A stretch of DNA of 64,000 nucleotides from Calditrichaceae bacterium (GCA_050173015.1 JBFXLE010000003.1:128001-192000), one strand, 5' to 3'. Shown: positions 2,880 through 40,063, counted from the first letter of the stretch. Notes: generated by a model from the sequence alone, not told the origin. Numbers and translations: made by a program.

Positions 2880-4077
2880 GATCATTGCAAGCGGATTTCG
2901 TATTATGCGTCGTAATAAACTTCGGACGTTTTTTATGATGATTGGTATCATCGTGGGCATCACTTCTCTCACACTCATCTTCTCATTAAGCAAAGGAGCT
3001 GAGAAGATGATAATGAATCGTGTTGAAAAATTCGGATTAAACAGCATCCTTATACAATCCGGTGGAGGGCGCGAAGTCGGACTCTCAAAAGGCGGATTAA
3101 CCACCACACTCACACTGGACGATTTGAAAGCCATTCAAAATGAAATCCAAAATGTGGCAGAAATATCTCCTTTGCAGTTAATCACAGGACGTGATACAAA
3201 ATATATGGGTAAAACCGCTTCCGCCGTAGTAATAGGGGCAACGCCCGAATGGGAGGAAGTCTGGGACTGGAGTGTTACCGACGGTGAATTTATAGACCAG
3301 CACGACATGGCAACAACCGCCCGTGTCGCTTTGATCGGCCTGACCGCGGCGAGTGAACTGTTTGGCAGCAATGATCCAATCGGCGAACAGATTCATATCG
3401 GAAATGTTGCCTTTGAGATAAAGGGTGTATTGGAGTCAAAAGGGACCAGCCCGGGTGGTGGTGATATGGATAACCGGATCATGATCCCGCTCTCTACCAT
3501 GATGCGGAGAATGATGAATGTGGATTATATCGCCTCCGCCAAATTGTTGATTTACGACACCGATCAAATCGATGTTTCGATTGAAGATATAGGCATGATA
3601 TTGCGTGAAAGACATCATCTCGCGGACCAGGAACCGGATGATTTTAGACTGGTTGGCCCGACCCAGGTGATGGAGCTGGCAACCAAAATCGCGGGTACCT
3701 TCAATCTATTTCTTATTTTGGTTTCGGGATTATCTTTGATTGTAGGAGGTATTGTCGTGGCCAATCTGATGCTTATTTCCGTTAATGAGCGCAAAGGAGA
3801 AATCGGTCTTAGAAAAGCAATCGGAGCCCGTTCCCAGGACATTTTAACTCAATTTCTCGCCGAGACAACTGTAATTACGGTTATTGGCGGAATTATTGGC
3901 ATTATGCTCGGTTTGGCGGGAGCTGAAGTTCTTGATAAGCTAATCGCTCTTCCTGCTTCAATATCCTGGGAAGCGCTTGTTCTGGGTCTCCTGTTTTCAA
4001 GCATTGTAGGTATTGCTGCCGGTATGATGCCGGCCAGAAGAGCGGCAACACTCGATCCAATCGAATCGCTGCGCTAA
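2866..4077 (+). CDS. MacB/FtsX-family ABC permease 1
   Basis: Start reassigned to ATG 2866 after SD GAGGAGG; TM1, large periplasmic domain, ERKGEIGLRKAIGA, ends PARRAA..DPIESLR. Confidence 0.92.
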   Translation: MKTSRIIASGFRIMRRNKLRTFFMMIGIIVGITSLTLIFSLSKGAEKMIMNRVEKFGLNSILIQSGGGREVGLSKGGLTTTLTLDDLKAIQNEIQNVAEISPLQLITGRDTKYMGKTASAVVIGATPEWEEVWDWSVTDGEFIDQHDMATTARVALIGLTAASELFGSNDPIGEQIHIGNVAFEIKGVLESKGTSPGGGDMDNRIMIPLSTMMRRMMNVDYIASAKLLIYDTDQIDVSIEDIGMILRERHHLADQEPDDFRLVGPTQVMELATKIAGTFNLFLILVSGLSLIVGGIVVANLMLISVNERKGEIGLRKAIGARSQDILTQFLAETTVITVIGGIIGIMLGLAGAEVLDKLIALPASISWEALVLGLLFSSIVGIAAGMMPARRAATLDPIESLR

Positions 4078-4179
4078 TACGATTAAAGTAAACAAATATA
4101 TTCAATGGCATTATCGGGTCAGATAATTTTAAAACAGGCTTTTTGATTAAAATAAACTGCGAACTTAACCAGGTGTAGC

Positions 4180-5403
4180 ATGAAACTCTATCGGAATATT
4201 AAAATTTCGCGTAAAACACTGCTGGAACACAAATTCCGCACTATTCTTGCCCTTATTGGCATTACGATAGGTGTGGCCGCTGTGATCATCATGGTGGCCA
4301 TCGGAAACGGCGCTCAGAAAGAAGTACTCGATCGGATCCAGGAAATGGGCTCAAACCTGGTCACGGTAAACTCGGGACAAGTCAAATCATTTGCCGGAAG
4401 AAAGCGTCAAATTGGCAATGTAACAACACTTATCCCAAAAGATGCTGCTGCCGTCGCCCAGGAATGCCCTTCGGTTGCGTTAGTTGCCCCCTCTCAATCC
4501 AAAAAAATGAAGATAAAATATTCAAATTTCACCACTACGACGAATGTTCTCGGCACGACATCCGATTTTCTTACCATAAGAAACTTTACGGTATCAAACG
4601 GAGCCTTTTTTTCAGACGCGGACGATAAGGCCTCTCTCCGTGTCGCCGTGATAGGAAAGAGTATTCAGGATTATTTATTTGAAGGTGATGATCCGTTGGG
4701 AGAGATCATTCGCATCGGCAAGGTTCCATTCGAAGTCATTGGCGTACTGACAGAAAAAGGCGTCAATTCTGATGGCGTGGATGAAGACGATCAGATAATA
4801 ATTCCTTTAAATACGGCTCTCCGGCGAGTATTTAATCTCACATATATAAATACCATCTATGTACAGGTGAAAAACAAAGAATCGATGGATCCTGCGGTGC
4901 AGGAAATTGGCGAGCTTCTAAGAGAACGCCATCGTCTGATAAAGAAGGGAAAGTCTGATGATTTTACCATACAAAACCAGATCGATGTTATCGAAGCGGA
5001 AAAAGAAACGACTGACGCTTTTACGCTGCTTATAGCGGGCGTGGCCGGCATTTCACTTCTTGTTGGAGGAATTGGCATTCTTGCAATCATGCTGATCACC
5101 ATCAAAGAAAGAAAAGGTGAAATCGGTCTGAGAATGGCCATCGGGGCGCGTCCAAAAGAAATTTTGATTCAGTTTTTGGCCGAATCAGCTATGCTGGGAG
5201 TTACCGGTGGGCTTCTTGGAATATTAATTGGTGTAACAGGATCTTATAGTTTAGGAATTTTAACGGATTGGGCGACTGAAATTTCAGTCCTTTCTATTAT
5301 TATTTCCATTGGATTTTCACTTTCTGTTGGATTGTTTTTTGGTGTCTATCCCGCAAGAAAGGCCTCTCTGATGGATCCCATTGACGCTTTGAGGAGTGAA
5401 TAA
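4180..5403 (+). CDS. MacB/FtsX-family ABC permease 2
   Basis: Same architecture as permease 1; ERKGEIGLRMAIGA, ends PARKAS.MDPIDALRSE. Confidence 0.92.
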   Translation: MKLYRNIKISRKTLLEHKFRTILALIGITIGVAAVIIMVAIGNGAQKEVLDRIQEMGSNLVTVNSGQVKSFAGRKRQIGNVTTLIPKDAAAVAQECPSVALVAPSQSKKMKIKYSNFTTTTNVLGTTSDFLTIRNFTVSNGAFFSDADDKASLRVAVIGKSIQDYLFEGDDPLGEIIRIGKVPFEVIGVLTEKGVNSDGVDEDDQIIIPLNTALRRVFNLTYINTIYVQVKNKESMDPAVQEIGELLRERHRLIKKGKSDDFTIQNQIDVIEAEKETTDAFTLLIAGVAGISLLVGGIGILAIMLITIKERKGEIGLRMAIGARPKEILIQFLAESAMLGVTGGLLGILIGVTGSYSLGILTDWATEISVLSIIISIGFSLSVGLFFGVYPARKASLMDPIDALRSE

Positions 5404-36787: not shown

Positions 36788-38938
36788 TCAATTAGTGATC
36801 AGTTTTTTTAACTCTTCTGTTGAAAAAACCGGCAGGCTGCATGTGTAATTTTGACAAACATACGCTGTTACTTTTCCATTGATGGGTTCTTTGCCCTGAA
36901 GCAGTGAATTTGTCATCACGGAATGTCCCTTACCGGGAGTGATGATCATCAGCACTTTATTGGGAACGTATGATTGATTGATTACATCCAGGTAGGGACC
37001 AATTTCCATCTCCTGAGGCCGCGCGATCAATATTTCCTTCGGTTTCTTAATATAAAAATCAAGCGCGTTTAAATAGCTTGCGTAACCATAGGGATTTACC
37101 GGAAACTCTCCTCCGTATTTCTTAAATATGTTCTCACATATTTTCATCAGATCATTATCTTCAGTGAGAGAAAATATCCTCAGATTATTTAACAGCATAA
37201 TCCCGGTTCCGGAAGGAATCGACTGATCGGTTTCATCCTTTAGTCTCTTGAAAAGTTCTTCCTGCTCATTTGATGTGTAATAATATCCTCCGTTTTCCGG
37301 ATCCAGAAAATTCTTGTTTACATACTGGGTTAACTCAAAAGCCCATTTTAAATAATCATCATTAAAAAGAGCCTCATATGCATCGAGGAGTCCCCTGATC
37401 AGATTGGCGTAATCATCAAGATAACCACTGTATTTCGCTATGCCATTTTTATATGTCCGCAGCAAGCGCTTGTTTTTATATAATTTTTTTTTCATAAAAT
37501 CGATGTTTTTTTCGATGATTATTCGGTATGAGTCCTTTCTTTCTGTCTGATAGGCCCGCGCGTACGCCGATAACATCAATCCATTCCATGAGGTAAGGAT
37601 TTTATCGTCTAATGCAGGTCTGACGCGATTTTCACGATCGTTTAAAAGGACTATTTTTCCTTCGGCAATAATATTCTTTATTTCATCCGCGGTCTTCTTG
37701 TATTTTTTTCCCAGAGTATCAATATCACCCGAAATATGCAAAATATTGGTCCCTTCAAAATTACCTTTTTCTGTAACACTATAAAAAGAGCAGAAGATTT
37801 CACCATTTTCATTTCCGAGCGACTTCAGGACCTCATCCTTTGTCCATACATAGAATTTTCCCTCTACACCTTCGCTGTCAGCATCCAGACTGCTGTAAAA
37901 TCCGCCGTCATCAGCATAAAGTTCTCTGGAGACGAACTCGAGGACATTAAACGCCACATTCTTATAAAAATCATCACCCGTAAGCAGATATGTATCCAAA
38001 TAGAGAGGCGCCAGCTGCGCGTTATCATAAAGCATTTTTTCAAAATGCGGAACAAGCCAGCGCTCATCAACCGAATATCGGGCAAATCCTCCGCCGATCT
38101 GATCATAAATTCCGCCGTTTGCCATATTCCTAAGCGTAAATGTCACCATATCTAGATAATCTTTATCCCGGTCAGTTTTATATTTTCTCAAGAAAAGATT
38201 TAAAGCCTGAACGGCCGGAAATTTTGGGGCATGACCGATACCGCCGAAATTCGGCTCATAATATTGTTTCAACCCATTTAGAGCCTGATCAAACACTTCA
38301 GGTCCCGGAAGTTCGTCCCCCTGAACTTCTTTCATGGAATGATCAAACGCATCATGCACCTGTTGTATGCTCTTGTCAAGTTTATCTTTTTCATTGTGAT
38401 AAAACTCAGCCACCGACTTTATCAATCTTTTAAATCCCGGTCTGCCATATCGGTCGTCCGGCGGAAAATAGGTGCCTCCGTAAAATGGTTTCTGTTCGGG
38501 TGTCAAAAAAACACTCATCGGCCAGCCGCCACTGCCTGTATACATTTGTACATATGCCATGTAAATCTGATCAATATCCGGCCTTTCCTCACGGTCAACT
38601 TTAATATTTATGAATAATTCATTCATAATCTTTGCGGTCCCTTCATCTTCAAAAGATTCCCTTTCCATCACATGACACCAGTGACAGGCCGCGTAACCGA
38701 TACTCAGGAAAATTGGTTTGTCCTTTTCCTTCGCCAGTCTCAGTGCTTCCTCCCCCCAGGGATACCAGTTTACCGGGTTGTGCGCGTGTTGTAAAAGGTA
38801 TGGGCTTGTTTCGTTGATTAACTGGTTTGTAAATTGATGCATTGGAGTACCCTCAGATTTATTTTTATCCGGACCACAGGCTATGATTAATAGAATAATC
38901 GGCAACATATGATTCAACAACTTGTTCATATCCACCAT
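36788..38938 (-). CDS. Thioredoxin-domain YyaL/SSP411-family protein
   Basis: [48 protein letters not shown]; start ambiguous (38938, 38929 or 38842). Confidence 0.93.
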
Positions 38939-39116: not shown

Positions 39117-39833
39117 CTACAAATCTTCTTTGGGATTCCAATGTTTCCAGACCTGCCCGACAAGATCAGGACCTGGTTTAAGCGTTTTTTTACCCGGCTG
39201 CCACCCTGCGGGACAAACTTCGGCCCCTTTTGTATTCCTGACATGCTGAAATGCCTGGATCTGCCGGATGGTTTCCCTGATATCACGGCCAACCGGAGGA
39301 GTCATCACTTCCATAGCCTGAATAACTCCGTCGGGATCTATGATGAAACGTCCCCGGAGTTCGACTCCGGCAGATTCATCATAAACTCCGTAAACTTTCC
39401 CGAGATTACCCGGTCCGTCCGATACCATATGAAACGGGATATCGTGACCAACCATCTTTGAGAGCTCCTGATCATTCCACGTTTTATGTACAAAAATACT
39501 ATCCACGCTTACTGAAATAACTTCCACTCCCAATTTTTGTAAATCCACATATTTTTCAGCGACCGCTGAAACTTCAGTCGCTCAGACAAAGGTAAAATCC
39601 CCGGGGTAAAAACAAAGTACAACCCAGCGCCCGAGAAGATTTGAAAGTTTAATTTCAGTAAATTTTCCCTTAAAATACGCCGGTGCCTCAAAATCCGGCG
39701 CGAGGGAACCAACTTTTGCTGTTATCATAGAATTCTCCTTCTGTTCATAACGGTTGTCTGTCGACTCCTTGTTCTCCGGTGCACCGACCACAGTTCCTAT
39801 AGGCCGGGCACAACCAATTTTGCTTTCGGCCAT
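39117..39833 (-). CDS. prxU: Selenocysteine-containing peroxiredoxin (AhpC/Prx1 type), read through in-frame UGA at 39582-39584
   Basis: Track ORFs 39582..39833 and 39117..39548 share one frame; joined sequence [14 protein letters not shown] matches the Prx motif FTFVCPTE; resolving EVCPAGW; 238 aa. Confidence 0.9.
39554..39571 (-). promoter_or_regulatory. Bacterial SECIS-like hairpin
   Basis: UUUCAGC-GGUC-GCUGAAA begins 10 nt after the UGA; apical loop starts with G. Confidence 0.8.
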
Positions 39834-40063
39834 ATTTAATCTCCTTTAATAATTAATACTACCTACACCCGCTTTAATGTAATCAGATAAACCGGGTATC
39901 GAAAGAGATATTTAATTTCCTGATTCAGCCCTTTACATCTAATTGTTGGATGGCGTTTTTAATTTTGGAATTTGAGACCCTCAGGTTTAAATTAGGCTAA
40001 ACTATTGATTAGGCAGCATCATCTTAATATAAGTCACACTATCAGGATAAAGATAAATCCGCT

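Follow-up and report, generated by a model that had tools for sequence, protein, structure and literature searches.

A PrxU-type peroxiredoxin with a predicted UGA-encoded selenocysteine at its peroxidatic position in an uncultured Calditrichaceae bacterium

The stretch JBFXLE010000003.1:128001-192000 of the Calditrichaceae bacterium assembly GCA_050173015.1 (64,000 nucleotides in full; hereafter the window) carries on its minus strand, at 39117-39833, what is almost certainly an intact prxU gene, predicted to encode an AhpC/Prx1-type peroxiredoxin in which the peroxidatic cysteine is replaced by selenocysteine (Sec) through decoding of UGA. The coding sequence of the long form is a single frame of 238 codons ending at a TAG (39117-39119), and its sole departure from genetic code table 11 is a TGA at 39582-39584; translated with TGA as Sec (U), it gives 238 residues that include the segment PGDFTFV-U-ATE. 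Under table 11 the same frame appears on the minus strand as two open reading frames (ORFs), 39582..39833 (83 amino acids) and 39117..39548 (143 amino acids). The original prediction had proposed that these two are one frame, broken only by TGA at the site of the catalytic cysteine, and translation confirmed it to the exact coordinate. We favor Sec decoding because the Sec machinery is present in the genome, the TGA is conserved among relatives, TGA is otherwise an ordinary stop codon in the window, and assemblies agree on the codon.

The translated product belongs to a curated family. Its match to the NCBIfam equivalog model NF040737 (peroxi_PrxU), whose cut-off is 270 bits, scores 401.4 bits and takes in positions 2-232 of the model's 233 and protein residues 6-235; the next NCBIfam model, AhpC, stays under its own cut-off. 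A search of the contigs of the source genome with NF040737 found the same gene at 395 bits with one TGA. Pfam places AhpC-TSA at residues 41-173, Redoxin, and 1-cysPrx_C at residues 194-229. The nearest solved chains are typical 2-Cys peroxiredoxins and AhpC proteins (5zte, 1we0 and 1qmv; E = 4e-47 to 2e-45), and the alignment to them runs over residues 38-228, across the Sec position and including the C-terminal VCPAGW. Here the UGA falls on the peroxidatic cysteine, as Sec84 of P77-G-D-F-T81-F-V-U84, which matches the PxxxTxxU motif as given in the available text of PMC13188914. Where the 2-Cys class has its peroxidatic Cys codon this gene has TGA, and such Sec variants are filed apart as PrxU. 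An AlphaFold2 (AF2) monomer built from a 96-sequence alignment has a mean predicted local distance difference test score (pLDDT) of 83.7, with 159 of 238 residues at 90 or above and most of the peroxiredoxin domain above 90; the predicted fold and dimer are settled by similarity to the solved 2-Cys peroxiredoxins. The family score and the structural alignment bear out the expectation of a PrxU-type peroxiredoxin with UGA at the peroxidatic position. Peroxiredoxins with TxxU are listed among experimentally known prokaryotic selenoproteins in the available parts of PMC9312934 and PMC13188914, both citing Sohling et al. 2001, and the PrxU of Eubacterium acidaminophilum from that study is referenced in the accessible text of PMC9312934, PMC8533274 and PMC7231847.

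The source genome (54 contigs, 97.5% complete) contains the machinery for Sec decoding, which had been only presumed from the window itself: selA, selB, selC and selD were all found by search. The tRNA-Sec scores 69.2 bits and is called by ARAGORN as tRNA-SeC with anticodon tca, and selA (516 bits), selB (362 bits) and two copies of selD (405 and 371 bits) all exceed their curated cut-offs. The two selD genes lie at G000:C2:247845-248780 (locus L020, 1384-2448, minus strand) and G000:C27:38679-39602 (locus L019, 328-2541, plus strand). The copy scoring 371 bits itself has an in-frame TGA, placing Sec in C-A-G-U-A-S-K; the copy that does not use Sec lies inside a 737-residue ORF and is probably fused to another domain. 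The Sec trait of this genome is clearly in use.

Conservation of the TGA extends well beyond the host. Across a set of 41 related genomes, including the source genome, 24 yield an NF040737 match above the cut-off, each with exactly one in-frame TGA. Among 80 loci fetched from genome_contigs, labeled as Calditrichota, KSB1, Marinimicrobia, Chloroflexota, Zixibacteria, Ignavibacteria, Acidobacteriota, Gemmatimonadota, Beta- and Gammaproteobacteria, Desulfobacterota and others, 79 have TGA at the Sec codon and one (L130) has TGC, which on these alignments is a classical Sec/Cys pair. A genome of the same genus (G001, locus L040) and an 89%-identical locus (L052) carry TGA as well. Downstream of the codon, 57 protein columns are invariant in 96 sequences.

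The nucleotides immediately 3' of the UGA can form a putative Sec insertion sequence (SECIS) hairpin. The UGA is followed by GCGACUGAAG (10 nt) and then by UUUCAGC GGUC GCUGAAA, a perfect 7-bp stem with a GGUC loop, located on the minus strand at 39554-39571 (loop at 39561-39564), with the loop beginning 17 nt past the UGA; folded alone, the hairpin has an energy of -8.0 kcal/mol. According to the available text of PMC13188914, the consensus bacterial SECIS (bSECIS) has an upper stem of 4-16 bp capped by a 3-9-nt loop, a G in the first two loop positions, a distance of 16-37 nt from UGA to loop, and a minimum free energy (MFE) of -7.5 kcal/mol or lower. The window's hairpin falls within all four of these constraints as that text gives them, having a 4-nt loop on a 7-bp stem, G at loop positions 1-2, a 17-nt distance and -8.0 kcal/mol, and the UGA with the 45 nt after it folds at -7.5 kcal/mol or lower in 96 of 98 sequences.

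These 98 sequences are the window and 97 distinct orthologs, aligned without gaps over 54 nt (the UGA, the 6 nt that precede it and the 45 that follow) with the exclusion of the window's own locus (L037) and of a truncated duplicate at L114 that diverges 15 nt past the TGA. Taking the hairpin with the pair that flanks the loop, 88.3% of cells are paired versus 76.4% in shuffles, and both sides have changed in 124 cells versus 36. The covariation score of the hairpin is 0.359 versus 0.133 in shuffles, none of 500 shuffles reaching the observed value, and it drops to 0.035-0.112 when the partners are slid by 1-3 columns. Pair 24/33 is the clearest case: it occurs as AU 47, GC 43, CG 6 and UA 2 times, is unpaired in 0 of 98 sequences, and joins third codon positions of Ser (UCN) and Ala (GCN), both synonymous. 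The loop-flanking pair, formed by the first and last loop letters, likewise joins third codon positions (GC 77, AU 20, CG 1), and the loop always has the form x-G-U-y (GGUC 77, AGUU 20, CGUG 1). Changes on both sides are seen in three of the seven stem pairs as well as in the loop-flanking pair. The outer two stem pairs are weaker, being unpaired in 28 and 36 of the 98 sequences, and the sequences concerned seem, from the alignment, to pair in a shifted register that leaves a U bulged. It is because of this comparative covariation, and not because of any single-sequence fold, that we regard the hairpin as more than chance. The hairpin named in the original prediction, with its 7-bp stem and GGUC loop 10 nt past the UGA, was exact, fits the bSECIS model and covaries. 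The PrxU SECIS provides a clean teaching case of an RNA structure built from codons, with covarying synonymous sites, across at least 8 phylum-level labels.

The same observations bear on three other accounts of the interrupted frame. Were the gene a peroxiredoxin inactivated by a nonsense mutation, its two ORFs would be decaying remnants; the frame is indeed broken under table 11 and its pieces are stored as separate public proteins, yet the same TGA stands in all 24 PrxU genes of the related genomes and, across phyla, in 79 of 80 loci, the protein is conserved 3' of it, the hairpin covaries and the Sec machinery is complete. We consider a pseudogene highly improbable. There is next to no chance that an assembly or sequencing error hides a true TGT or TGC codon and thus an ordinary Cys peroxiredoxin. 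The family does include a Cys form, at L130, but contigs from other studies leave the codon unchanged: those of run X2, which are near-identical and may share their source with the window, span the whole stretch, keep the TGA and differ once, at 39615, and the contig of run X3 record 5 covers 39508-39587 with the TGA kept and no differences, while run X7 stops short of the codon and run X6 covers it by short pieces from relatives only. The check for TGT or TGC, made on contigs, thus turned up no other letter in runs X2 and X3, and the TGA of L040 and L052 also stands against an error. Reassignment of the codon, with TGA standing for Trp or some other standard residue, could draw on the W found at this position in 7 of 12 fetched public homologs (P0004, P0010, P0011, P0013, P0047, P0071 and P0093). 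However, TGA is an ordinary stop in the window, where it terminates 10 of 46 ORFs of at least 200 amino acids and where table-11 ORFs of that length span 52,326 of 64,000 bases; moreover, the tRNA with the tca anticodon scores as tRNA-Sec, a peroxidatic Trp would be catalytically dead, and the lone family member without TGA has Cys. Reassignment is accordingly given the same minimal probability as an assembly error, and the W entries are cases of TGA taken as Trp by gene callers, a systematic mis-annotation of this family in metagenome protein sets.

A fourth alternative retains Sec insertion and assigns it to a different RNA structure, a helix pairing GCGAC with GUCGC that starts right after the UGA and that had also been pointed out from the sequence of the window. 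This pairing exists: the MFE structure of the UGA and the following 45 nt includes it, both for the window (-11.9 kcal/mol) and for many relatives, and 84.4% of the helix cells are paired. It does not covary, however, its score being 0.049 versus 0.050 in shuffles, with 264 of 500 shuffles reaching 0.049, and of the 98 sequences 22 break its pair 10/32 and 30 its pair 12/30. Its loop would start 7 nt past the UGA, outside the range of 16-37 nt, and neither of its first two positions would hold a G, and conserved Ala-Thr and Ala-Val-Ala codons explain the pairing. We take this helix, together with a small inner helix, to be a by-product of conserved codons, and find it very unlikely to be the functional SECIS.

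Several observations weigh against the proposed Sec-containing PrxU and its hairpin. Sec insertion in the Calditrichaceae host is a prediction from sequence. The single-sequence fold is no better than chance (z = -1.56; 15 of 200 shuffles as good), the MFE of the UGA and 45 nt favors the competing GCGACUG/CGGUCGC helix in the window and many relatives, and the four core pairs of the hairpin are present in only 52 of 98 such MFE folds. The hairpin lies within conserved S-A-V-A codons and its conservation is partly protein selection, and the shuffle tests are inflated by kinship of the sequences, leaving the argument to rest on the covariation of synonymous sites. According to the available text of PMC8659212, SelB of E. 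coli depends on a bulged U (U17) that is missing from the stem in the window, this bulge being an E. coli feature outside the consensus bSECIS model. An Rfam scan of 39300-39900 (E up to 10) returned no matching family and two chance small nucleolar RNA (snoRNA) hits (E ~8). Lastly, no conserved reductant gene adjoins prxU among 108 loci searched, including a Pfam survey of 144 flanking ORFs at 76 loci.

For the predicted enzyme we propose the following mechanism. The hairpin 10 nt past the UGA would recruit SelB carrying Sec-tRNA(Sec), and the ribosome would insert Sec84 rather than terminating. The selenolate of Sec84, held in the P-xxx-T-xx-U pocket with a conserved Arg, would then reduce hydrogen peroxide or organic hydroperoxides and be converted to a selenenic acid; Arg160 and Arg162 are both invariant in 96 sequences, and one or the other is the proposed pocket residue. 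A thiol would resolve the selenenic acid to a selenenylsulfide, and a thioredoxin-type reductant would recycle the enzyme. Both the peroxidase chemistry and the thioredoxin dependence are inferred from homology with Prx1/AhpC chemistry. A textbook intersubunit selenenylsulfide may be possible because the canonical resolving residue, Cys207, is present in the window protein, in the motif E-V-C-P-A-G-W (codon at 39213-39215, minus strand) that aligns with VCPAGW of 5zte.

Other cysteines of the family suggest that this textbook route may not be general. Counted on 108 unfiltered stop-to-stop translations, the resolving position is C in 51 rows, T in 45, M in 6, A in 3 and L in 1, and was not found in 2. 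Cys74, in the strand LCFYPGDF (codon at 39612-39614, minus strand), is Cys in 108 of 108 rows, and the ordinary Cys peroxiredoxins of related genomes (L048-L051) have Phe at this position, which makes Cys74 specific to PrxU. A further cysteine, Cys8 (codon TGT at 39810-39812, minus strand), lies in the motif G-C-A-R-P-I-G of an N-terminal arm (residues 1-35, 39729-39833); the family form of the motif is G-C-A-R-P-T-G, and its C-x-R-P core is present also in a Firmicutes entry (P0085). The Cys8 column is Cys in 105 of 108 rows, the misses being L039, which has no extension, L073, and the apparent artefact at L114. Cys8 is encoded by TGT 51 times and TGC 47 times, and all synonymous codons are in use at conserved arm residues; because synonymous codons are used so freely, selection on the arm acts at the protein level. 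The spacer from Cys8 to the peroxiredoxin domain is variable in sequence, and 95 of 98 genes have it at 30-34 residues. A Shine-Dalgarno sequence, AGGAG (39841-39845, minus strand), stands 7 nt ahead of the long-form ATG (39831-39833), and 88 of 98 distinct genes of the family have GGAG or GAGG upstream of their long-form start. Judged by its conservation, the segment of 35 residues ahead of the peroxiredoxin domain is a real arm and not an over-extended ORF. The arm is predicted to be disordered: residues 1-35 have a pLDDT below 50 in the AF2 monomer, which shows no docking site for them, and no solved peroxiredoxin chain among the best solved relatives covers the arm.

Translation may also begin at a second start. 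An internal AGGAG (39735-39739) with a 6-nt spacer precedes an ATG at 39726-39728 (Met36), the whole site spanning 39726-39739 on the minus strand at the start of the peroxiredoxin domain. An ATG occupies the first residues of this domain in 93 of 99 genes, the other six having GTG (five) or an ATG slightly further on (one). GGAG or GAGG occurs 5-18 nt upstream of the internal start in 97 of 97 genes, versus 8.7% of 14-nt segments in the same genes. The window's internal site is written with the codons AAG-GAG, though the genome favors AAA and GAA by about 3:1, and the short form has been chosen by some gene callers (P0047, P0071, P0089). The PrxU purified from Eubacterium acidaminophilum in 2001 reportedly had a mass of about 22 kDa (203 amino acids), the size of the short form and not of the 238-residue form. 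From these patterns we infer that two translation starts may yield isoforms of 238 and 203 residues, with the arm serving as a tethered thiol. It is possible, if on balance doubtful, that the family makes both isoforms, with and without the arm, and that the tethered Cys8, maybe via Cys74, resolves or protects the selenenic acid of Sec84. Neither dual isoforms nor resolution by Cys8 was found in print for PrxU, the text of the founding 2001 paper aside. The arm cysteine, Cys74, the half-kept resolving cysteine and the internal start may be new as family-wide observations. If they hold up, the arm Cys, Cys74, a dispensable Cys207 and the internal start would point to an undescribed catalytic cycle and two isoforms; if true, this would be a resolving mechanism new to every peroxiredoxin class, in a widespread bacterial selenoenzyme. 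These side observations on the arm, the cysteines and the second start could outweigh the finding itself.

The neighborhoods of prxU vary among loci. In the window, a gene at 36788-38938 on the same minus strand, 178 nt downstream of prxU, encodes a 716-residue Thioredox_DsbH/DUF255 protein with a C-H-W-C motif; of 108 loci, just L040 and L052, both close relatives, and L117 and L122 (Desulfobacterota) have a DUF255 gene next to prxU. In five loci of Thiobacillus, Thiocapsa and Thauera type (L097, L105, L106, L109, L110), the gene that immediately follows prxU on its strand is selA, so that there a selenoprotein gene is physically linked to the Sec synthase gene. Other neighbors include FUR-family (L070, L071, L080) and LysR-type (L074-L077, L089, L091) genes, catalase (L084), KatG (L082) and rubrerythrin (L094). 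The predicted functions of neighbors elsewhere fit a role in peroxide stress and a link to Sec, and none is universal. Locus L088 carries a tandem pair of prxU genes (3001-3708 and 4084-4791), and at L114 a duplicate cut off after its first 89 codons (1541-1807) stands right before a second, partial copy (~1870-2340), an arrangement suggestive of an assembly artefact or a recent duplication. A second peroxiredoxin group was seen in 11 places in related genomes, with one in-frame TGA at FTFV-U-PTE and scores of 212-231 bits, below the PrxU cut-off; its examples L046 (G035:C251) and L047 (G008:C257) have a hydrophobic, signal-peptide-like N-terminus. No copy of this group at 212-231 bits was found in the source genome.

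Gene callers split the window gene, as had been foreseen: its 83-residue N-terminal piece is a stand-alone public protein entry (sources NCBI and Logan), and a 136-residue C-terminal piece, 99% identical, is a separate entry (P0099). The relatives P0085 and P0110 are named 'thioredoxin-dependent peroxiredoxin' by NCBI. The description of the gene as a hidden selenoprotein holds for the annotation of this Calditrichaceae genome; it does not hold for the family, which has a curated NCBI model. Nothing relevant was found in the literature on selenoproteins of Calditrichota. The finding is thus a catalogued selenoprotein family met again in a new, uncultured host, and it corrects the annotation of a genome in which an active-site selenoenzyme is now stored as two fragments.

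Comparison with known systems places the gene more closely. Relative to the SECIS of E. coli fdhF, as described in the available text of PMC8659212, the hairpin begins 10 nt past the UGA rather than 11 nt, and both apical loops contain a G and a U (G23 and U24 in E. coli). The upper stem in that description carries the bulged U17, whereas the stem in the window is perfect and the whole element is made of S-A-V-A-E codons; on an uncounted reading of the alignment, a U would bulge at that place in many PrxU orthologs that use other codons. With the PrxU of Eubacterium acidaminophilum, compared via NF040737, the window protein shares the AhpC/TSA fold, Sec at TxxU and a match to the whole model, and differs in its host lineage, Calditrichaceae being new to the family. 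Typical 2-Cys peroxiredoxins (AhpC, human Prx2, plant BAS1) share with it the PxxxTxx[C/U] pocket, the Arg (RGRF) and the C-terminal VCPAGW with its resolving Cys; in contrast to them, the window protein carries Sec in place of Cys as the peroxidatic residue, replaces the Phe of position 74 by Cys, and adds an N-terminal arm of 35 residues that bears a conserved Cys, while about half of the PrxU family appears able to dispense with the resolving Cys. The peroxiredoxin-like thiol:disulfide oxidoreductase selenoproteins (PF00578) belong to the same Pfam superfamily, use the same decoding machinery and suffer the same mis-splitting at TGA. They have UxxC and are predicted to be secreted, whereas PrxU has TxxU, the C-terminal domain of 2-Cys peroxiredoxins and no signal peptide.

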